From: Candidatus Neptunichlamydia sp.
Lineage (GTDB): Bacteria > Chlamydiota > Chlamydiia > Chlamydiales > Simkaniaceae
Assembly: GCA_965233865.1 (NCBI GenBank)
Contig: OZ247587.1
Location: forward strand, 256,001-320,000
DNA: 64,000 nt
Reading direction: 5' to 3'
A program made the translations under genes and the position numbers. The notes under the pieces were generated by a model. It saw only the letters and a program-made list of their open reading frames with translations, was not told the origin of the DNA and ran no database searches. This document shows positions 21,687 through 31,459 of this stretch, one piece after another (position 1 is the stretch's first letter; every line of letters starts with the position of its first letter).

Positions 21687-22070
21687 TCAGCGAGTTGTGT
21701 CGGTTTTTTTGAAATTAAAGGCCTGAAGGACCTTTTTTGATATGGTTCTAATTTCTTCCCATTGTGGAAGCTCTATGAGTTTTTCTGTAGATTTTTCTGA
21801 AGAATATATCCCATATGTGTCTGTAAACTTTCTTAATTTAACATGTAATTTCATCAATAGCTTATATTGTATTTCTGTAATTCCAAACTCCTTATATTTC
21901 TCTAGAATGTAATCCTCATCAAAAAAATCGCAAATGGTATCATCGATATCGTCGCACTCCGGTCCCTCAGAGCGTACCCATACCCTTTCTTGATAGTCCC
22001 TATCAGACATGCAAGCTATGTTCTCAATAAAACTGTCTAATGTTTGCTTCCTATCTGCATAGCTAATCAT
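21687..22070 (-). CDS. Putative immunity protein
   Basis: Acidic 127-aa ORF 2 bp after a toxin-like gene. Confidence 0.55.
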   Translation of the reverse strand: MISYADRKQTLDSFIENIACMSDRDYQERVWVRSEGPECDDIDDTICDFFDEDYILEKYKEFGITEIQYKLLMKLHVKLRKFTDTYGIYSSEKSTEKLIELPQWEEIRTISKKVLQAFNFKKTDTTR

Positions 22071-22072
22071 AA

Positions 22073-23128
22073 TTAATTTTTTCCTAACTCTCTATAAATA
22101 AATTCTTCAAGTGGTATATGTGCTTCTGCCGATTTATTTGAAACTATGTTACCATGTTTATCAAGGGATTTTCCATGTATTCTTTGATTCACATAGGATT
22201 TCTGTTGACACGGATTTTTGCTATGAACCTTTCCTGGCATGATTCTTACATAAGTCCCTTCATCGTGAGGATGCACGTACTTCATACCACCTGGTTTATC
22301 TGCTAGCTTAACTTTATAATTTTGAGGGATCCCTTTTGGCCGACTGAAAGTCGGAATGCCAGTTGTATGAATAAGTTCTTTAACTTCCGATTCCGGCATG
22401 TATCTTCCATGAAAAGGTTTTAATTTTTCTTCAGCCTTTTGAAATAGCTCTACAGACTCTTGCATTGATAAACTTAAATGATTGAATTCTTTTTGCAGAG
22501 TTGTTTCTAACTTGCCAGCCTGCTTTAATTGGCCCATTTCTTTTGCAGTAAATCCTAATTCGTCTCCTAAAAGAGCAGTCCTCCTTCTGTTACTTATGAT
22601 TTCCCCCGCCTTGGCGGTATTTCCAACTCCGGCGGCTGTTTCAAGAACCAGCGTTCTTTCAGCCTTTTGGAGATTTTTTAAGACAGCAGCGAGATCTCTC
22701 GCACTCTTTGCGCTTTTACTTGCAATTTTGGCTATAGCTCCAGGTGCTGCAATATCTGCGCCATGTTTTCCAAAGGCATATCCAGCAAGCTCTCCTCTTT
22801 TATCAGAAGGGAGGGTGTCCCATTGAGTAACCAACTGATGAATCTCTGGGGATAATACCTCTCCGATTACTCCCCACTCATCATCACGAGCAAGTCTAGC
22901 AAGTGTTGAGAGAGCATCATACATTTGTGTTGAAGTGTGAATAGGATGAGTGATTAAATCCCCGAGGAATAAAATAATCCCTTTTCCGGATTCGTAGATC
23001 CCTTTTGGTAGTCCCTTTGCAAAACTTAGGGTGAATTCTGGTGTAGAAAATGGAATGTTCTCAGGAGCCTTTTCAATTTGAGATGCGAAGTTATTAAAAT
23101 CTTCGATAGATTTATTGAATTGACCCAT
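22073..23128 (-). CDS. Polymorphic-toxin-like protein (5'-decayed) with C-terminal nuclease-like tip
   Basis: Pre-toxin-like helical linker then VRIMPG..NPCQQKSYV..LDKHGN..EAHIP; upstream region has stops. Confidence 0.6.
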   Translation of the reverse strand: MGQFNKSIEDFNNFASQIEKAPENIPFSTPEFTLSFAKGLPKGIYESGKGIILFLGDLITHPIHTSTQMYDALSTLARLARDDEWGVIGEVLSPEIHQLVTQWDTLPSDKRGELAGYAFGKHGADIAAPGAIAKIASKSAKSARDLAAVLKNLQKAERTLVLETAAGVGNTAKAGEIISNRRRTALLGDELGFTAKEMGQLKQAGKLETTLQKEFNHLSLSMQESVELFQKAEEKLKPFHGRYMPESEVKELIHTTGIPTFSRPKGIPQNYKVKLADKPGGMKYVHPHDEGTYVRIMPGKVHSKNPCQQKSYVNQRIHGKSLDKHGNIVSNKSAEAHIPLEEFIYRELGKN

Positions 23129-23376
23129 ATCAAAATAGGAGGCACTTCTCTCTTAGTAGAATGTCACTTTTTTCTTCCATCTTCAAACTCTCTTAACGCT
23201 TTTGCAATGTTCATAACCCTATTTTCTGCACAGTATCACAACCCTGGATTTCAAAAAAACAAGATATCTCAAATTTTTTAAAACCTTTTTTTGGATGCCT
23301 TTAGCTATTGCAAATCGAAATTCCTTGAAGCTTTGGGAAGATCATATTAACATGCATGTTTTAATTAGAGAGGGCT

Positions 23377-23793
23377 TTGAGTCACATGAAAAATAAGAAG
23401 GCAACTATGGATACCAATGGATCTGACCTATTAAGTTCTCTGAAGGATTACTCTCAAAAATTTATAAACGATCGAGAGTGGTCGAAATTTCATAGCCCAA
23501 AAAATGTCGCCATAGGCGTTTCTGTTGAAGCCGCGGAGCTGTTAGAGATTTTTCAATGGCTTACAGAAGAGCAATCATTTGCAATGAAAGATGACCCAGA
23601 AACCCTACAGAAAGTTCAGGATGAAGCTGCTGATATTTTTCATTTTCTTATTCGGTTATCTTCGGTTCTTGATTTCGATCTAATTAAGGCTTTTTGGAGA
23701 AAAATGAAGCAGAATGAATCGAAGTATCCTGCCCAACTCTGTAAGGGTGGTACTAAAAAATACTCAGAGTTGTGTTGTAATGAAGAAGGTTGA
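23377..23793 (+). CDS. MazG-like nucleotide pyrophosphohydrolase (dCTPase-like)
   Basis: REWSKFHSPKNVA..VEAAELLEIFQW...DEAADI...KM..NESKYP. Confidence 0.9.
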   Translation: MSHMKNKKATMDTNGSDLLSSLKDYSQKFINDREWSKFHSPKNVAIGVSVEAAELLEIFQWLTEEQSFAMKDDPETLQKVQDEAADIFHFLIRLSSVLDFDLIKAFWRKMKQNESKYPAQLCKGGTKKYSELCCNEEG

Positions 23794-24958
23794 TAAAAAA
23801 AGTTATAAGAAGGTTACAAGACAAGACTCAGGCTTTAAGCGTGTTGAGCATTACTTTAATAATAGAATTTCTCTGCTGTACGGTAATCAGAAAGAAGCTC
23901 TTAAAAAAATTTCTAAAAATAACGATCGAACCTGTGAGCTTCTCGTTGGAGAAACCGGTGAAGATTATGGTGTGATAGTCTATAAAAATGAACTTACCTC
24001 AGAATATACGTCTTTATCTTTTCCAGAGGCCTTTGAAATAAAAACTCTCTTCGTCGTAAATCCTTATAAAAATTCTGGACAAGGTATCGCAACTCATCTT
24101 TTAAATCATCTATCAAGAAGAGCTTATGCTTTGAAAGCAAAGAGCTTATTTGTAACTGTGAGTTCTAAAAGCCCAGAAGCTCTTGCTTTTTTTCTTTATC
24201 ATGGGTTTCGAGTAAGGACTATCAAACCAAATCTCTACCTCGAAGGGCAAAATGAGTATTTTCTCTTCCATACAAACCTAAAAAATCTGCTAAAAAGCAC
24301 TCGAGACATTCTTAGATCTCCTGCTTTAGGAAAAAGTACTCAGCATTTAGAGCATCCTGATTCTAAGAATATTGAATTCACAGAGAAAGAAACACATGTC
24401 ATCAATTTTCTGAAAACTCAAGAATTTCCGCTGAAGTCTTTTTTTAACTATTATGGCTTTCAGCTCTCGCAAGAGCTAATGCATGAAAGTGTTTGTAAGT
24501 TTGTTGATTGGGTTATGAAGTGGCAAAAAAAGGCATTAGCCAAACGGTATGTCATTTTGTTCACAAACTCCTTGTACGCAGATGATCAAAAAAACAATTT
24601 GATAGGAGAGCTCATTATTGGAATGACTCAGGACGCAGAAAGGCATCTTCTTGGGTGCATTCCATGCACATCTTTACCGCAGGTTTTTTGGAAACAGATT
24701 TTCAAATCTTTTAAAATAAATGGAATACGCACTATCGATATCTTTTGTAGCAGACATATTCAGGAAGTTTTGGATGCAGCGTCTTCTTGCTATCCTTCCA
24801 TGAAACTTGAAAAATTAAACTACCCGAAATCTTGGTCACCAAAAGGTTTTTCTCCTTATAGCTTGTTCTGTGAATTATCTCGGGACGTCCAATTTAGCGA
24901 TAGTCTACTTAAAGATGATCTGGTTCTTCAGGAGGGGTATATAGCTAGAGCTCCTTAA
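23780..24958 (+). CDS. GNAT acetyltransferase fused to a degenerate IS256 transposase core
   Basis: EIKTLFVV..NSGQGIATHLL..FFLYHGF, then YGFQLS..KWQKKAL..YVILFTNSL..FWKQIF..GIRTIDI..CYP; overlaps the MazG stop. Confidence 0.75.
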   Translation: MKKVDKKSYKKVTRQDSGFKRVEHYFNNRISLLYGNQKEALKKISKNNDRTCELLVGETGEDYGVIVYKNELTSEYTSLSFPEAFEIKTLFVVNPYKNSGQGIATHLLNHLSRRAYALKAKSLFVTVSSKSPEALAFFLYHGFRVRTIKPNLYLEGQNEYFLFHTNLKNLLKSTRDILRSPALGKSTQHLEHPDSKNIEFTEKETHVINFLKTQEFPLKSFFNYYGFQLSQELMHESVCKFVDWVMKWQKKALAKRYVILFTNSLYADDQKNNLIGELIIGMTQDAERHLLGCIPCTSLPQVFWKQIFKSFKINGIRTIDIFCSRHIQEVLDAASSCYPSMKLEKLNYPKSWSPKGFSPYSLFCELSRDVQFSDSLLKDDLVLQEGYIARAP

Positions 24959-25070: not shown

Positions 25071-25886
25071 TCATTGAGGCTTAGTCTTTTCCTCATATTT
25101 TTTAGCAACAATAAGATAATAATCAAAAGTACCCTCGATAAATCCTTTATACCAATTCCTATCCCAAGAAGACTTCAAATCACTTTGGTTTACCCAATCA
25201 TCCAAAAAACGCCAGACATATTCACCAATAGCGGTGGTGTAGATCTCAGCAAACCCCACGTTTTCGAGATCTTTAACAACTTGAGAAATATTAGTTAGTC
25301 TATCCACCCCATTTTTGATGGTAGGAATAAGGTTTGTTGCTAGGTCACGCTTACTTTCATCTTTCCCAAAAAAAGTTGCCACTCCTAACGTCCCTCCAGG
25401 TTTAAGTACCCGAAAAGCTTCAGAAAAAAAAGTTGCTAATGAGTTAAAATGTTGCGCAGCTTCAACAGACATAATATGAGAAAAACTCTCTTTTGAAAAA
25501 GGAAGTTTTGCACTATCACCAACGACAAAGTCAATCGCTTTATTAACTCTCTTTGCCCTTCGAATTTGGTCTGGAGAAGAATCTAACCCAATAATTTTTC
25601 GAGGAAAATACTCTTTTTTTAATAGAGCGGTTCCAACGCCTATCCCACAACCCACTTCAAGGATTAAACTCTCATTAGAAACAGAAAGTCGATTTGCAAC
25701 AAGCCTATACAAGTCTCTTTGGCTCTCTAGACGATCTTCTATTGTGAGAGACCCTAAAGCATTTTTGGAGTTTTTCCAATATCCAAAGTTAATAAATCCT
25801 CCAGCAAACATAGAGAGCTCGTGCAACTTGTCAGCATACATGGCCGCAACAGAATCAAGCCTGGGCAAGTTGTTTTTCAAAGTCAT
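25071..25886 (-). CDS. Class I SAM-dependent methyltransferase
   Basis: INFGYW, ILEVGCGIG, SVEAAQHF, RVLKPGG. Confidence 0.9.
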   Translation of the reverse strand: MTLKNNLPRLDSVAAMYADKLHELSMFAGGFINFGYWKNSKNALGSLTIEDRLESQRDLYRLVANRLSVSNESLILEVGCGIGVGTALLKKEYFPRKIIGLDSSPDQIRRAKRVNKAIDFVVGDSAKLPFSKESFSHIMSVEAAQHFNSLATFFSEAFRVLKPGGTLGVATFFGKDESKRDLATNLIPTIKNGVDRLTNISQVVKDLENVGFAEIYTTAIGEYVWRFLDDWVNQSDLKSSWDRNWYKGFIEGTFDYYLIVAKKYEEKTKPQ

Positions 25887-26074: not shown

Positions 26075-27268
26075 ATGCTCAAAAATAAACCTCCTCTGCT
26101 TAGTGCTTCAATCGCTATATTTTGTATATTTTATGGCGATTGGGGTAAGATGTATTATTACGAAACAATTAAAGAATTTACTAATGTTTCGTATTACTTA
26201 AATTTAAATGTTTTTATTTCAACTGGAGCTTATCTTTTATTAGCATTTCTTTCAGATATCTGGTGCAGAAAGAAAATGCTATACTTATCAACTTTAATGT
26301 TAATATCTTCTGGTTTTTTTCTAAGGTTTCACCATCCTATGCTGTCAACAATTGCTATTTCTATAGCACCTGTCACCCCAATAGCAATAGCAGCATACTG
26401 TGACGTTCATATGTCAAACGATAGGGAGCCTAACGTTATTAATACTTTCATGATAAGGCCATTACCTTGGATGCTGTTTCCTCTTGTATATCAAGATATT
26501 AAGTTGTTTTTTTTAACCGATATCGCCCTTGGCATCTTGGTAGCTATTTTCACGATTTGGTTGTTTGTTGACTATCGCGATAAAGACAACAAGAAATTTA
26601 GTTTTGGAATATTGGACGCCGTTAAGGTTTATGGGCTCCGTGTCTGCATAGCAATATCCATTGCCTTTTTTTTCACGAACTGGGCTTGGAGCATGCTGTT
26701 TTACTATCTAGAAAAAGTGGAAAATGGATCTGTTGTAGCGACCAACTTTATGCTCTCTCCAGGGATATGTTTTTTTCTAGGCGCTGCTTTTTCTAGGGTA
26801 TTAATACGAAAAAAACGGATATTTACTACCTATTTCGAAGAAAAAAGCAGTCAAATATTTAAAGCTACCTATTTAAAATTAATAATATATATATCAATTG
26901 GAATTATACCGTTTGTGATTTTTATTTCACTCTTAATATCAATATTGAACGGAGATCATTCTAACGTTGTATTAAACAGCCTTCCCTTATTTACATTTTT
27001 AGGAGGTGTGTTCATCCCTTCAATCTACGCTTTCTTTGGAAGTCAACTAAAATACCACTCTTTAGGTCTTGTATATGCTGCACTAGAAGTTGTTCAGTCT
27101 GTATCAGAATTTACAGGGGCAGAAGTTGGAACACTACCCTTTTTTAAAGAGGAATTGAACCACATAGTTACATTTGCAATTTTTCTTTCACTTCTTTCGT
27201 TAGTGGTTCTAAATACTTTACCAAAAGATACATCTCCTAAAAAGCTTCTTTCTCAAGGTAATAATTAA
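26075..27268 (+). CDS. Divergent MFS-like transporter
   Basis: About 12 hydrophobic segments; LSDIWCRKK resembles MFS motif A. Confidence 0.65.
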   Translation: MLKNKPPLLSASIAIFCIFYGDWGKMYYYETIKEFTNVSYYLNLNVFISTGAYLLLAFLSDIWCRKKMLYLSTLMLISSGFFLRFHHPMLSTIAISIAPVTPIAIAAYCDVHMSNDREPNVINTFMIRPLPWMLFPLVYQDIKLFFLTDIALGILVAIFTIWLFVDYRDKDNKKFSFGILDAVKVYGLRVCIAISIAFFFTNWAWSMLFYYLEKVENGSVVATNFMLSPGICFFLGAAFSRVLIRKKRIFTTYFEEKSSQIFKATYLKLIIYISIGIIPFVIFISLLISILNGDHSNVVLNSLPLFTFLGGVFIPSIYAFFGSQLKYHSLGLVYAALEVVQSVSEFTGAEVGTLPFFKEELNHIVTFAIFLSLLSLVVLNTLPKDTSPKKLLSQGNN

Positions 27269-28220
27269 CATAATCACAAAGGTGAGTTTTTGCTAATAAC
27301 TTAGCTTTCTTCTTCCAATATTTATACTCTCTGAAAGTAAATAATGGAGGGGGGCGAAAGCAATTCCATTTGCTAGAGTAAAACAGCCTTGCGCCTAATG
27401 GATCAAAATCGGCAATATTCATTTGCCTGTTCAAGCTATGAAAAAGAAGTTGTGTTGGCTGCTCCCACGATACATTCTTTATTTTTATAGGAGCTTTTTC
27501 AAAAAGGACCTCCATTCCCTTTCTAGAGGGAAGTACAATGTGATATGGAGCGTGAATCCCTTCCCAAGCTTCCTTAAAAAACTTATAAGAAAATGACTCT
27601 ATACTAGGAATTCTAATTAAGCATTTTCCTCCAGGGCGCAAAAGTGAGTTGATTGTTTCAGATAGCAAGTGAACTTGTTCTACATGTTCAAACGAGTGAT
27701 GAAACATAATTAAATCAAACTTCTCTTCTAGATCAAAAATTGTAGCTTTTCTAACCATATCATCAGTGTTGGTATGACAATTAAAATTCAAAAATGGATC
27801 TATGCCAAGTACATCCTTAAAACCAATGCTATGTAACTGCCTTACTAGGCTACCATTTCCACAACCTACGTCGAGAATCCTCATTTCTTTTGTAAGATTA
27901 AGATTCGTTAAAGCTCTTAATTTAAGGGAGTCATATCTTTTATCAAAAGCTAAAGCTAAAATAGCGAATTTGTTCTTCTTCAAAAGAGCCTGCTTATAAA
28001 TTGCCCTCTCGAAAAAGCTTAAACCTTTTCCAAGCCCTTGGAAGTTGGGATAGCTTTGATAATATTGGGATAAGTCAGGAGGTATCATATTTATTGATAG
28101 CGAATTGCATTTAGAACATTCTATATATTCAAATTCACTTCTTATTCCAAGAGTCATTTCTTTTGGAAAAATGATTTTGTTGTGCCTATTATTTTTACAA
28201 ATTCTACAAGCTAAATCCAT
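27237..28220 (-). CDS. Class I SAM-dependent methyltransferase with N-terminal Zn finger
   Basis: CRIC..CSKC, ILDVGCGNG, FHHSFEHV, LRPGG, APYH. Confidence 0.88.
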   Translation of the reverse strand: MDLACRICKNNRHNKIIFPKEMTLGIRSEFEYIECSKCNSLSINMIPPDLSQYYQSYPNFQGLGKGLSFFERAIYKQALLKKNKFAILALAFDKRYDSLKLRALTNLNLTKEMRILDVGCGNGSLVRQLHSIGFKDVLGIDPFLNFNCHTNTDDMVRKATIFDLEEKFDLIMFHHSFEHVEQVHLLSETINSLLRPGGKCLIRIPSIESFSYKFFKEAWEGIHAPYHIVLPSRKGMEVLFEKAPIKIKNVSWEQPTQLLFHSLNRQMNIADFDPLGARLFYSSKWNCFRPPPLFTFREYKYWKKKAKLLAKTHLCDYVNYYLEKEAF

Positions 28221-28221
28221 C

Positions 28222-28827
28222 TCAACATTGGGAGTATTGATAATTTTGTTTTATAATCTCTTTTATTTTTTCTTTTGACTCTTTTTGAACAACAATTTTA
28301 AATTCCTTTAAAAACGAGTCAAAGCAACAGTATGGATCTAGAAGGGTTGGAGCATATTTGACGTCATATTCATTCCACTTTGAAGAGTTTGCTTCATTAT
28401 GCTGAATTTGAGCCTCCATTTTATCAAGGGCTAAAACAAATTTAGCTTCACTCGACGTGCAGTTTTCGAATTCATTCCATAGGTCCAAAATTTCATCTTT
28501 GATATTTTCTGGAAGATTTTTTACAAGCAGTTTCATTGCAGCCAATTCACTTTCATGCTTTTCTTGCTGCATCTTTTTATCTTGTATAAAAACAAAGTAT
28601 GGAGTATCTCCTGTAATAATCTCTGCTAAATCGTGGATTATAGCTAACTTAAGGCATTTTCCGATGTTAATTTCCTCGTCTAACAAAGGGCCAAGCAACA
28701 TGACCATCAAAGAAACTCTCCAGCAATGATCAGCAACACTTTCTCTGTTGTTACAAGATGTGAACCCATTCCGTTTTTCAGTTTTTAGCTTTTCACTTAA
28801 GTGAATAAATTCCAATAAGCTATTCAT
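28222..28827 (-). CDS. HD-domain hydrolase (YfbR/HDDC2-like)
   Basis: LKTEKRNG..RESVADHCWR..IIHDLAE..GD..EAKFV.ALDKME. Confidence 0.9.
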   Translation of the reverse strand: MNSLLEFIHLSEKLKTEKRNGFTSCNNRESVADHCWRVSLMVMLLGPLLDEEINIGKCLKLAIIHDLAEIITGDTPYFVFIQDKKMQQEKHESELAAMKLLVKNLPENIKDEILDLWNEFENCTSSEAKFVLALDKMEAQIQHNEANSSKWNEYDVKYAPTLLDPYCCFDSFLKEFKIVVQKESKEKIKEIIKQNYQYSQC

Positions 28828-28870
28828 TATTTTAATACCTCTATCAAACTGGTTTTTTACATATTTAGCA

Positions 28871-29845
28871 CTAAAAAACATGTAAAAATGCAACAAAGAA
28901 AGACCCAAACGCTGGGGTATTCTTCCCAATTACACTAAACCAATAACCCAGCAGCATGCCACTATTTTCAGTAAATGTAAACTCTAACTCTGGAGCAAGG
29001 GAAAGCTGGGCAGAAGAAGACACGAAAATCTTCGCTGGCATCTGCTCCGAATCAGCACCCCTTCGCCCAGAAAAACTCCCTGGAAAGTTTTGTTGATAAT
29101 TAGAATCAAATCCTATCGCCCATCTGTCATTTAAATTGTATTCTCCCGATAAATAAAATGTAAAATAACTCCCAGGAGAAACGGTACCTTTTGTACCAAG
29201 CCCGCCACCATATGAATTAAAATTTCTTACATTCACCTTTGATGGAAGGAAATAGCCTAAGCTAAATCTTGTTTGAAATTTATGATAATTAGAGATGTAA
29301 TACAATTTTTGAAAAGCAAAAAAAATACCTGTCTGGTATGATCCCAAACCAGTTGAATCAACACCTCCCTTCTTAGGATTAAGGTTTTGATATTGACCTG
29401 TTGGAACAGTTTCTTGAATAATAATCCTAAAGTTTGGCATCAACGATCCCGTCTTTTCGGTATTTATAACTTGGAATCCAACCCTTAAAACGGTGTCTTG
29501 CAGCCTTGTAGATTGCTGTCCTTGCTTTTTATTGGAGATCCATGAACCTAAAAATTCAATTCCTATAAATGAATTTAACCCAGCTTGAAAGTCAATATAG
29601 TTATAAAAAGACCACGTGTTTGGTGTATTTTTTGCCTTCCAGTTTTTAGAATAAATGCCATAAGTATTTTTTACTCCAAATGTTACTTCAATTCCAGGAT
29701 GAGATGGATCTGGCGTAATAGCCAATGGTGTAAGTAATGGTCCAGTAAACCACTGTTCGAACGTTTGACTCTCCGGTGGGCTAGCCGCAAGCGCTTGAAG
29801 TGTGAAAAAGAAAAGGATTGAAGAATAGGCTTTAATGTTTTTCAT
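28871..29845 (-). CDS. Outer-membrane beta-barrel protein
   Basis: Signal peptide, WFTGPLL, PTGQY..L.P..G.D.TG.GS, alternating beta-strands, C-terminal Phe. Confidence 0.7.
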   Translation of the reverse strand: MKNIKAYSSILFFFTLQALAASPPESQTFEQWFTGPLLTPLAITPDPSHPGIEVTFGVKNTYGIYSKNWKAKNTPNTWSFYNYIDFQAGLNSFIGIEFLGSWISNKKQGQQSTRLQDTVLRVGFQVINTEKTGSLMPNFRIIIQETVPTGQYQNLNPKKGGVDSTGLGSYQTGIFFAFQKLYYISNYHKFQTRFSLGYFLPSKVNVRNFNSYGGGLGTKGTVSPGSYFTFYLSGEYNLNDRWAIGFDSNYQQNFPGSFSGRRGADSEQMPAKIFVSSSAQLSLAPELEFTFTENSGMLLGYWFSVIGKNTPAFGSFFVAFLHVF

Positions 29846-29869: not shown

Positions 29870-31459
29870 TTAAAAAATAGCTAAATGTTCATCCATTCTT
29901 CTGCTTGGCATATGAGTTTCGATATACTGATCTAAATTGGAGGTAGTGATCTCTGTTTCATTAATAAGGTGCTCTACAGCCTCTTGAGGAAGAACCTTTA
30001 GAAAAAGGGCTGTTTCGATGAGAGGGCTTGAGGCAAGGGTTGAAGCAAGCAATTTCATTTTTTTGTGAATTGTTATGATTGCTTTCTCCTCCTCATTTCC
30101 CATTTTCTCAATCTTGCACTCAAGAACCTGATTTGTGATTGAAAGAATAGCCATCGAAACTAAAAAAGTGGTCGCACAAGAAAGTGTGACCTCCATAAAA
30201 ATTTCTAATCCCTCATGAGAACCATAATAGTCTCTGCTTAGTTCAACCGCAGGGCCATACGATAGTGCAGCAGTTGCAAGCCCTAAAGCTTTAAGTGAAA
30301 AAGATAATTTTGGAGTTAGTTGATCAGAAAGTGTAGGCTGATAGCTACAGGTAAATAAATCTTTGAAAAGATTGAAGAGAATAACAGCGGTTTCTGGGAT
30401 AGCGGTTGCATTGAGATAGAGAGCTGTTCCTACATAAAGACTCGTAACTGTAGTATCTGCGTAGAGGTTATCAGTTAATTCATCTGTTCCTAGCCATGCA
30501 ATATAACCTAGGGTACCAATGTTGCATGCGGCACACAAATAGCCGTAAGATTTTACAGTGTAGTCTATATATTTAGCATATTTCGGTGGATTAAAAGTGC
30601 GATCAGATATTCTGCGTGTGAACAGAGTATAAAGCTCTTTCACACGGTCTGGAGCGCTATCAATTCTTTTGATTCTTTCATATGAGCCGATGAAATCATT
30701 TCGTGTCTCTTTCCCAACGACAGCAAGAAGTTGCCGATTTCCTTCGATTAAGGCATGCATTTTTCCTCTCACGCCCGATAGCCATTTTTCGTAATCTGTT
30801 AAGGACTGCCTCTCTCTCAGAGTTTTTAATCCCATATATCCCGAATAAACAGAGACCCAAGAATCAATCGCAAAAACCATGATTGGCATAACAAGTCCAT
30901 CGGGGTTGAGCGTTGAGGGTTCATTGTATTTATAGGCAATATAAGCAAATGGTATTTGGGTGCCGAACCCTAGAACTGTCGAAGCAGCAAAAAAAACTTT
31001 TTTAAGGCTAGGGCTAGTCCGAGACTCCATCAGCACCTGTTCTTCACGAGAAAGGGGCTGCATTTGTAAATTAACGATCTCAAGTAAGGAGTAAGAGACT
31101 AAGTACCCGAAGGAAGCGCAGGTGCCATAAGCTAGAAAACCTCCATAAACTTTATTATCTCCCCCTAACTGGAGATTTATTTCTATAAAGGGAATCCTAC
31201 CTGCAAACCCAGCAACTACACTGGCTGCTTGAAGAGCCCTTCGAGCTATCAAATGGACTTGTCCTTCTCTAGCTCCAATTTCTTTGATAAGGCGTTTGTC
31301 AATGAAGAGAGCAATATTGCTGTTTTGAAAATAATCACCGCCAACTTGCTGAATAACATAGTTGCGTGGTCTATCTTCGATGGAAATCAGAGGTGAAGAA
31401 GAGCTCATATTTTTGACCGATCGATTACCTTTAAAAAAGGATGTTAAACCTATCGACAA
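29870..31459 (-). CDS. Multi-pass membrane protein of unknown function
   Basis: 529-aa ORF with two clusters of hydrophobic segments separated by a soluble region. Confidence 0.65.
   Translation of the reverse strand: MSIGLTSFFKGNRSVKNMSSSSPLISIEDRPRNYVIQQVGGDYFQNSNIALFIDKRLIKEIGAREGQVHLIARRALQAASVVAGFAGRIPFIEINLQLGGDNKVYGGFLAYGTCASFGYLVSYSLLEIVNLQMQPLSREEQVLMESRTSPSLKKVFFAASTVLGFGTQIPFAYIAYKYNEPSTLNPDGLVMPIMVFAIDSWVSVYSGYMGLKTLRERQSLTDYEKWLSGVRGKMHALIEGNRQLLAVVGKETRNDFIGSYERIKRIDSAPDRVKELYTLFTRRISDRTFNPPKYAKYIDYTVKSYGYLCAACNIGTLGYIAWLGTDELTDNLYADTTVTSLYVGTALYLNATAIPETAVILFNLFKDLFTCSYQPTLSDQLTPKLSFSLKALGLATAALSYGPAVELSRDYYGSHEGLEIFMEVTLSCATTFLVSMAILSITNQVLECKIEKMGNEEEKAIITIHKKMKLLASTLASSPLIETALFLKVLPQEAVEHLINETEITTSNLDQYIETHMPSRRMDEHLAIF

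Follow-up and report, generated by a model that had tools for sequence, protein, structure and literature searches.

What has a fragment of a transposase to do at the end of an acetyltransferase gene? The question is raised by a 64,000-nucleotide stretch of the genome of Candidatus Neptunichlamydia sp. (Chlamydiota; Simkaniaceae), called the window here, which comprises bases 256001-320000 of a single 1.83-Mb contig (OZ247587.1). Two overlapping open reading frames on its plus strand, 23377..23793 (138 aa) and 23714..24958 (414 aa), encode a MazG-like enzyme and a GNAT acetyltransferase whose C-terminal part derives from an IS256 transposase. We judge it rather probable that these genes form a selected two-gene accessory operon of the Simkaniaceae, in which a MazG-like enzyme is paired with a GNAT protein that carries an exapted IS256 fragment.

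The start of the fusion gene is placed at ATG 23780 (23780..24958, plus strand, 392 aa and a stop codon), in agreement with both the alignment of its orthologues and a database gene call (P0001, 392 aa). This start leaves an overlap of 14 nt with the end of the MazG-like gene, whereas the longest open reading frame, which begins at ATG 23714, would give one of 80 nt; the corresponding overlaps in relatives are likewise only a few bases. Judging from Shine-Dalgarno spacing, the MazG-like gene likely starts at ATG 23386 (23386..23793, plus strand), its longest frame beginning at TTG 23377. A scan of the locus for promoters and terminators returned fewer promoter-like sites than shuffled sequences did and no terminator. 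An assembly artefact was considered as the source of the fusion and rejected, since the fusion is found in independent assemblies, in the finished record of a plasmid and in contigs from three public sequencing runs. These public-run contigs (X4, X1 and X3) show no differences from the locus, and X4 is identical over 23300-24362, the extent of its coverage here.

A GNAT domain joined to a transposase fragment

Residues 1-180 of the fusion protein (23780..24319) make up a complete GNAT fold. The AlphaFold2 (AF2) model of the whole protein has a predicted local distance difference test score (pLDDT) of 92.7 and a predicted template modelling score (pTM) of 0.90, and pLDDT reaches 94-98 over residues 11-180. 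Structural comparison of this domain by VIA-align gives Z = 17.4 to the N-terminal acetyltransferase Naa60 (root-mean-square deviation (rmsd) 2.1, 154 residues aligned) and Z of about 15.5-17 to Naa50, Ard1 and RimI; Z is at least 8 for 890 of the 998 chains compared, and the matches listed are GNATs. The sequence K-N-S-G-Q-G at residues 96-101 occupies the place of the acetyl-CoA pyrophosphate-binding loop, for which we take Q/R-x-x-G-x-G/A to be the motif. Within it N98 and G100 are invariant in seven orthologues, and the last motif position is K or R in several. The window protein falls slightly below the Pfam cut-offs for this fold (Acetyltransf_10, 21.7 versus 23.6 bits; Acetyltransf_1, 18.8 versus 20.7 bits), and relatives in the same subfamily exceed the Pfam cut-off (P0017, 31.8 bits; P0023, 31.0 bits). 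There are also a weak match to the NCBIfam RimI model (E = 2.8e-5) and, by profile, a match to Naa50 (E = 2.3e-4). The fusion protein is a predicted acetyltransferase.

When a profile of the seven orthologues was compared with 1.84 billion representative proteins, 547 matched at E <= 1e-10. Nearly all of these matches cover only profile positions ~10-180, which argues at the sequence level that the window GNAT belongs to a large, distinct GNAT subfamily. Among 39 longer members that were hand-picked for Pfam scans, ASCH domains occur in 19 and WD40 propellers in five, and acetyl-CoA synthetase, PDZ and leucine-rich repeat (LRR) domains are single cases each. The proteins joined to WD40 propellers (P0032, P0033, P0062, P0077 and P0113) are about 540-770 aa long, one of them also has LRRs, and they could be effector-like. 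In addition, at nine Chlamydiota loci (L040, L041, L046-L048, L051, L052, L057 and L060) the GNAT match lies within open frames of 534-641 aa.

The C-terminal part of the window protein is homologous to IS256 transposases far beyond chance. Pfam Transposase_mut (PF00872) matches residues 247-364 of the 414-aa form over model positions 128-249 of 379 (E = 7.3e-5, 22.3 bits against a cut-off of 21). The NCBIfam IS256 model NF033543 matches with E = 7.3e-10 over model positions 87-210 of 338 only, and its 38.3 bits lie far under the curated cut-off of 150, so the protein as a whole does not qualify as a member of that family. Between them, the two models cover residues 245-364 of the 414-aa form. 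The seven-member profile aligns over positions 206-352 with residues 111-261 of the ISCth4 Mutator-family transposase (PDB 6xg8; E = 1.9e-19). Folded alone, residues 196-392 give a compact model with pLDDT 90.1. A Foldseek search with this model, the check that an earlier note on this DNA had proposed, places ISCth4 chains in the top five positions (E = 7.5e-8 to 3.6e-7), and in VIA-align the ISCth4 chains score Z = 11.7 (rmsd 4.1, 100 residues aligned), 11.0 and 10.9, with the next unrelated chain at 7.9. Sequence and structure thus both identify an RNase-H-like fold of IS256 origin. The earlier note, written from the sequence alone, had described a complete GNAT domain fused to an IS256 core that lacks both aspartates of the DDE triad, and each element of that description is borne out.

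In the excerpted description of the ISCth4 structure (PMC7780238), the transposase consists of a dimerisation domain (residues 1-56), an N-terminal domain that binds DNA (56-108), a helix-turn-helix (HTH) domain (108-165) that doubles as a dimer interface, and a catalytic domain with residues D175, D241 and E348, which is interrupted by an insertion domain (261-325) whose CxxH motif is formed by C262 and H265. With the three-residue offset in the chain numbering of 6xg8 allowed for, the homology spans the HTH domain and, of the RNase H fold, the first five strands and two helices. D175 (in FID) aligns with N263 of the fusion (codon 24566..24568), and D241 (in CAD) aligns with R325 (codon 24752..24754). 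In the alignments of family members (A1 and A2), the first catalytic position is N, S or T and never D. The region of the IS256 model that bears E348 has no sequence match in the fusion. The N-terminal dimerisation domain, the subterminal DNA-binding domain, the insertion domain and the CxxH motif are also missing, and when the protein is aligned with four IS256 transposases from related genomes, about 150 residues of their C-terminal part are left unmatched.

What remains of the transposase can be divided into three pieces. The first is a poorly conserved three-helix segment (residues 201-246; 24380..24517) that comes from the HTH domain and has modelled helices at 202-211, 218-225 and 231-245. 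The second is the catalytically dead RNase-H-like core (residues 247-345; 24518..24814), with strands modelled at 256-266, 274-283, 288-294, 318-323 and 342-344. The third is a tail of two helices (residues 346-392; 24815..24955) that stands where the insertion domain is absent, and pLDDT drops to 49-58 in its last 20 residues. The best-ranked VIA-align superposition pairs model positions 53..174 with ISCth4 161..374 and jumps over the insertion domain from about 265 to about 374. This geometry suggests that, if the model is right, the first tail helix replaces the last RNase H helix and closes the fold at the point where the insertion domain was.

The fusion therefore has in common with IS256 and Mutator transposases (ISCth4 TnpA, PDB 6xg8/6xgw/6xgx; PF00872; NF033543) the HTH, the RNase-H-like sheet and the sequence blocks KWQ...Y.I.F, G....GKR..LG and YW...F..LK..G. 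It differs from them in that it sits behind a GNAT domain, is single-copy and syntenic, has both aspartates replaced and has lost three domains. There is one copy in the 1.83-Mb genome and the gene occupies the same operon in other genomes, which is not the distribution of a multi-copy mobile element (terminal inverted repeats were not searched for). The fusion is unable to transpose and is not a mobile element.

Origin and conservation of the fusion

We consider it very likely that the fusion is domesticated and under selection, rather than a decaying insertion sequence, as the earlier note had also supposed. A scan of genome contigs with the single window protein found no relative, and an alignment-based scan found five. 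Full-length orthologues free of stop codons, 34-40% identical to the window protein, are present in four further genomes of the 41 searched. More copies occur in Simkania, on a Simkania sp. chromosome and on the conjugative S. negevensis plasmid pSn, and a metagenome contig has another. The 1.84 billion representatives hold six full-length clusters at 50% identity, three shorter variants that keep the RNase-H-like part without the HTH, and a 212-aa protein consisting of nothing but the C-terminal part.

The full-length fusion has a single origin. In a tree of the GNAT domain with 48 rows (two rows were left out, one duplicating L023 and the other a weak second domain of L043), the 12 full-length fusions form one clade with support 97/94, and the reading frame is open in all 12. 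Base composition alone would leave a frame of 197 codons open with a chance of about 2.4e-6. Residues such as W248, G276, G281, R288, G292 and W304 are invariant in seven sequences.

The transposase-derived part is under purifying selection in the closest relatives. Over its 148 codons, the proportions of nonsynonymous differences (pN) in the trio L010, L011 and L012 are 0.152, 0.242 and 0.256, and the corresponding proportions of synonymous differences (pS) are 0.715, 0.676 and 0.724. These values give a ratio of nonsynonymous to synonymous rates (omega) of roughly 0.07-0.17, a rough figure because the synonymous rate (dS) is saturated in all pairs, and for pairs that involve the window omega is not reliable.

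The genome's own IS256 copies look different. One is intact (405 aa) and the rest are truncated or contain stops; all of them match the family model much more closely than the fusion does, and the fusion shares only 20% identity with the intact transposase. Two relics lie nearby, one within the window at 2506-2850 (G000:C1:258506-258850) with two in-frame TGA stops, and the other just upstream of the window (G000:C1:252916-253200). Both outscore the fusion against the IS256 model and are ordinary decaying copies. Separately, the pSn orthologue (L061, NC_015710.1, 3135-4331) is labelled 'transposase' in RefSeq and carries the Gene Ontology (GO) term for DNA transposition. This label is misleading, because the catalytic residues and half of the transposase are gone.

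The MazG-like partner and its neighbourhood

The gene upstream of the fusion encodes a MazG-like all-alpha NTP pyrophosphohydrolase of the dCTP pyrophosphatase 1 (DCTPP1, or RS21-C6) type. It matches Pfam PF12643 with E = 1.9e-10 (41.2 bits against a cut-off of 27), and its matches in the PDB include an archaeal pyrophosphatase (4qgp, E = 1.1e-19), DCTPP1 (6sqw, E = 1.8e-16) and RS21-C6 (2a3q, E = 1.9e-16). Six acidic residues (E48, E51, E54, D79, E80 and D83) are invariant across eight orthologues and fit what we take to be the metal-binding motif of the MazG fold, E-x-x-E ... E-x-x-D; for these reasons the gene product is expected to be an active enzyme. It thus resembles DCTPP1, an enzyme that prefers modified dCTPs, in its structural matches and in its kept acidic residues, and it differs in being a bacterial protein of 135 aa that is translationally coupled to an acetyltransferase.

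The linkage to MazG, which the earlier note had suggested looking for elsewhere, is conserved and co-inherited with the fusion. A MazG orthologue lies directly upstream, with an overlap of a few bases, in every fusion locus read, and MazG matches above 200 bits are found in exactly the five fusion-bearing genomes of the 41 searched. A weaker MazG paralogue, at about 100-112 bits, is present in many of the 41. In the window genome (G000) the operon copy is the single DCTPP1-like MazG gene, and three other carriers of the fusion (G001, G010 and G014) have a second, more distant paralogue. A predicted complex of the fusion with MazG scored 0.00 and gave no verdict, and nothing is drawn from it.

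The pair itself appears to be older than the fusion, since genes for the GNAT domain alone (195-202 aa) occur behind MazG in two other Chlamydiales families (L024/L032 and L038); the transposase piece would then have been added later. These GNAT-only proteins fall in the same supported half of the GNAT tree. The survey of the wider neighbourhood took in flanks of 1.5 kb at 30 loci of this GNAT subfamily in Chlamydiota, and a search with a 10-row alignment gave five metagenome loci. Across the 30 loci, MazG is adjacent in eight, an ASCH domain is fused or adjacent in 16 and an HD_3 gene is present in two.

Downstream of the fusion, the window contains an HD_3 gene (28222..28929, minus strand) for a YfbR-like 5'-deoxynucleotidase, and this family also adjoins the pair in L009, L024 and L032. 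Between it and the fusion lie two S-adenosylmethionine methyltransferase genes identified by Pfam (25071-25886 and 27237-28220, minus strand), which flank a gene for a membrane protein of the major facilitator superfamily (MFS) type (26075..27268, plus strand). This MFS protein is possibly associated with the MazG-GNAT pair, as the MFS protein next to the GNAT-only pair in L024 is its homologue (E = 3e-30, 27% identity). Farther along the minus strand are an outer-membrane-type protein (28871-29845) and a 529-aa membrane protein (29870-31459) whose homologues, identified by eye, flank the MazG-fusion pair in L010, L011, L012 and L009. Rearrangement appears to have taken place in this region around a conserved neighbourhood.

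On the other side of the operon, 21687-22070 (minus strand) encodes a 127-aa SCO4402-family or DUF7945-like protein, with an NCBIfam match (E = 7.2e-9) below the cut-off. Directly upstream of it is a gene for a 351-aa protein that has no family match (22073-23128, minus strand). DUF7945-like genes are also found near the MazG-GNAT pair in L023, where one of 253 aa follows an 869-aa protein, and perhaps in L024. The 351-aa window protein and the 869-aa L023 protein show no similarity to each other. The 351-aa and DUF7945-like genes may be a toxin-immunity-like pair.

Possible functions of the operon

The following history and mechanism could account for this operon. The ancestral unit would be the MazG-GNAT pair. 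In an ancestor of the Simkaniaceae, an IS256 copy would have landed at the 3' end of the GNAT gene and been captured in frame; what is left of it comprises the HTH, the RNase-H-like sheet and a single helix that closes the fold. The remnant would now lie packed against the GNAT as a domain without catalytic activity, taking the C-terminal place that ASCH holds in most multi-domain members of the subfamily, and because it holds this position we propose that it may serve in substrate targeting or as a scaffold. The acetyltransferase might then act on a cytosine-type nucleotide, nucleoside or nucleic acid, and the matching free nucleotides might be processed by MazG, by the nearby HD 5'-nucleotidase and, in relatives, by the ASCH protein. 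A nucleotide- or nucleic-acid-directed function of this kind, with the remnant as a docking or scaffold domain, is the reading that we favour, though tentatively.

The suggestion of a cytosine-type substrate comes from the link to ASCH, a PUA-like domain that binds nucleic acids or modified bases, and from the DCTPP1-like and YfbR-like genes nearby. The ASCH member YqfB is described as hydrolysing N4-acetylcytidine (PMC6972931), a 2026 preprint presents ASCH proteins as erasers of N4-acetylcytidine (ac4C) in tRNA (10.64898/2026.02.27.708502), and GNAT fusions to PUA-like domains are proposed to act on nucleic-acid bases (PMC7641849). A more specific form of the proposal is that the dead IS256 module was recruited as a nucleic-acid-docking domain, that the GNAT acetylates cytosine at N4 in DNA or RNA, and that MazG, the HD 5'-nucleotidase and an ASCH amidohydrolase-type protein clean up the acetylated cytosine nucleotides that are released. 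We regard this form as decidedly unlikely. If it were true, it would be the first instance in bacteria of a DDE insertion-sequence transposase that was exapted to target a nucleic-acid-modifying enzyme.

Several observations count against the selected operon and its nucleotide-directed function. The unit is patchy, being present in five of the 17 genomes of the genus with the window genome counted. The window's branch is long, with 19-32% identity to the others in the C-terminal part, and the comparison of substitution rates that the earlier note had proposed succeeds in part: pN is well below pS in the closest trio, but dS is saturated and constraint is less clear in the window lineage, where pN is 0.47-0.54 and pS is 0.69-0.87. 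The search of public sequencing runs listed no RNA run that holds the locus. The ASCH link is also incomplete, as the window's whole genome contains no ASCH match, and the ASCH genes downstream of the fusion in L009, L010, L011, L023 and pSn are convergent with it and not co-transcribed. By eye rather than by a predictor, the ASCH proteins of L009 (2705-3223), L010 (920-1459), L011 (2703-3242) and L023 (6122-6634) have hydrophobic N-termini like those of signal peptides or lipoproteins, which would be unexpected in a nucleotide-salvage enzyme.

The HTH-derived part is the least conserved region, with 11-29% identity between clades, its charge is near neutral (-2 to +5), it is deleted in the variants P0009, P0010 and P0014, and by alignment it lacks the DNA-contact residues that the ISCth4 excerpt lists. 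These properties make sequence-specific DNA binding by the remnant doubtful, and net charges calculated for each domain show no clear sign of nucleic-acid binding. Nucleic-acid binding, which the earlier note had included among the activities of the module, is conjectural for the transposase remnant.

The rival that survives best is a protein substrate. In this scheme the GNAT, of the NAT/RimI type, acetylates the N-termini or lysines of proteins, the remnant is a protein-binding or oligomerisation scaffold, and linkage to MazG reflects co-regulation only. It agrees with the nearest structures of the GNAT domain, which are protein N-terminal acetyltransferases, and with the weak RimI and Naa50 matches. 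It also agrees with the fusions of other subfamily members to WD40, LRR or PDZ domains and with the second role of the ISCth4 HTH as a dimer interface, a feature that the structural excerpt cited above describes. However, likeness in GNAT fold says little about substrate, the dominant partner in the subfamily is ASCH and not a protein-binding domain, and the tight, co-inherited overlap with a DCTPP1-like gene would be left unexplained. We consider a protein acetyltransferase of this type unlikely.

A toxin-antitoxin (TA) or anti-phage module, which is the kind of function that the earlier note had in mind, is improbable and gains no positive support from the results. Here the GNAT would act as the toxin by acetylating aminoacyl-tRNA or nucleic acid, and MazG would be its antidote or a nucleotide-depleting effector. 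The pair is indeed a two-gene overlapping operon with a patchy distribution that lies on a conjugative plasmid in S. negevensis, and for GNAT-PUA-like fusions that have ASCH partners a TA or defence role has been proposed (PMC7641849). PADLOC (PADLOC-DB 2.0, 2023 library) nevertheless returns nothing for MazG or the neighbours and one weak match for the fusion (PDC-M11A, E = 1.3e-3, 15.5 bits), the loci read contain no other defence genes, and an EVE or PIN domain is absent. Type II systems such as TacT and AtaT pair a GNAT with a small DNA-binding antitoxin of the ribbon-helix-helix (RHH) or DUF1778 type. The only predicted co-transcribed partner of this GNAT is the MazG-like protein, which is a conserved enzyme with intact acidic motifs and not an antitoxin of either type.

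Small-molecule handling is a quite improbable third alternative, in which the GNAT would acetylate a nucleoside-type antibiotic or metabolite together with the methyltransferases and an MFS exporter, and MazG and the HD protein would sanitise phosphorylated analogues. MFS and methyltransferase genes do accompany the pair in the window and also in L024, the distant GNAT-only locus, short-chain dehydrogenase/reductase (SDR) and EamA genes are downstream in pSn, and L026 has an SDR gene. Such neighbours are not conserved across most fusion loci, however, and the known antibiotic acetyltransferase families give no match beyond noise (AAC(3)-I, E = 0.17). Finally, a neutral relic, meaning an old IS256 insertion read through by chance as a functionless tail, would suit the poorly conserved HTH part with its losses in some variants and the very divergent window copy, but it can hardly be reconciled with pN far below pS in the closest trio, open frames in 12 of 12 full-length members, invariant residues, a confident compact fold and the broken state of true IS256 relics in the same genome.

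As a selected operon with an exapted IS256 fragment, the pair can be compared with two sets of known proteins. Bell et al. (2020; PMC7641849) describe GNAT-ASCH and (PIN)-GNAT-EVE fusions that likewise join a GNAT to a C-terminal accessory domain of a nucleic-acid type and have an ASCH gene nearby. The accessory domain in the window protein is a transposase remnant and not PUA-like, a PIN, EVE or AAA_17 domain is absent, and so is a link to restriction-modification; the commonest partner in the window GNAT's own subfamily is ASCH. Iyer et al., as cited by Bell et al., have reportedly also treated such fusions.

The second set is eukaryotic. That transposases can be exapted into host proteins is well known from eukaryotes and from RNA-guided nucleases, and the domesticated Mutator-like transposases FHY3/FAR1 and MUSTANG are transcription factors that keep most of the transposase. 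Like the fusion, they are host proteins from the same transposase superfamily that have lost transposition; in the present case, by contrast, a bacterial fragment is joined to an enzyme. A full-text literature search, in which titles and abstract starts were inspected, turned up no report of this fusion, of a domesticated bacterial IS256 fragment, or of a fragment of a bacterial DDE insertion-sequence transposase retained in a metabolic or modifying enzyme as a domain without catalytic function.

The fusion is one of the rare cases in which a bacterial host protein has taken up part of a transposase as a domain. Its capture is open to study because the ancestral GNAT-only forms, the full fusions and the derivatives without the HTH are all extant, and the public annotation of the S. 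negevensis orthologue as a transposase is corrected. For the family as a whole, the large ASCH-linked GNAT subfamily is now tied to dCTP-pyrophosphatase-like and 5'-nucleotidase genes, which provides a testable lead to its substrate.

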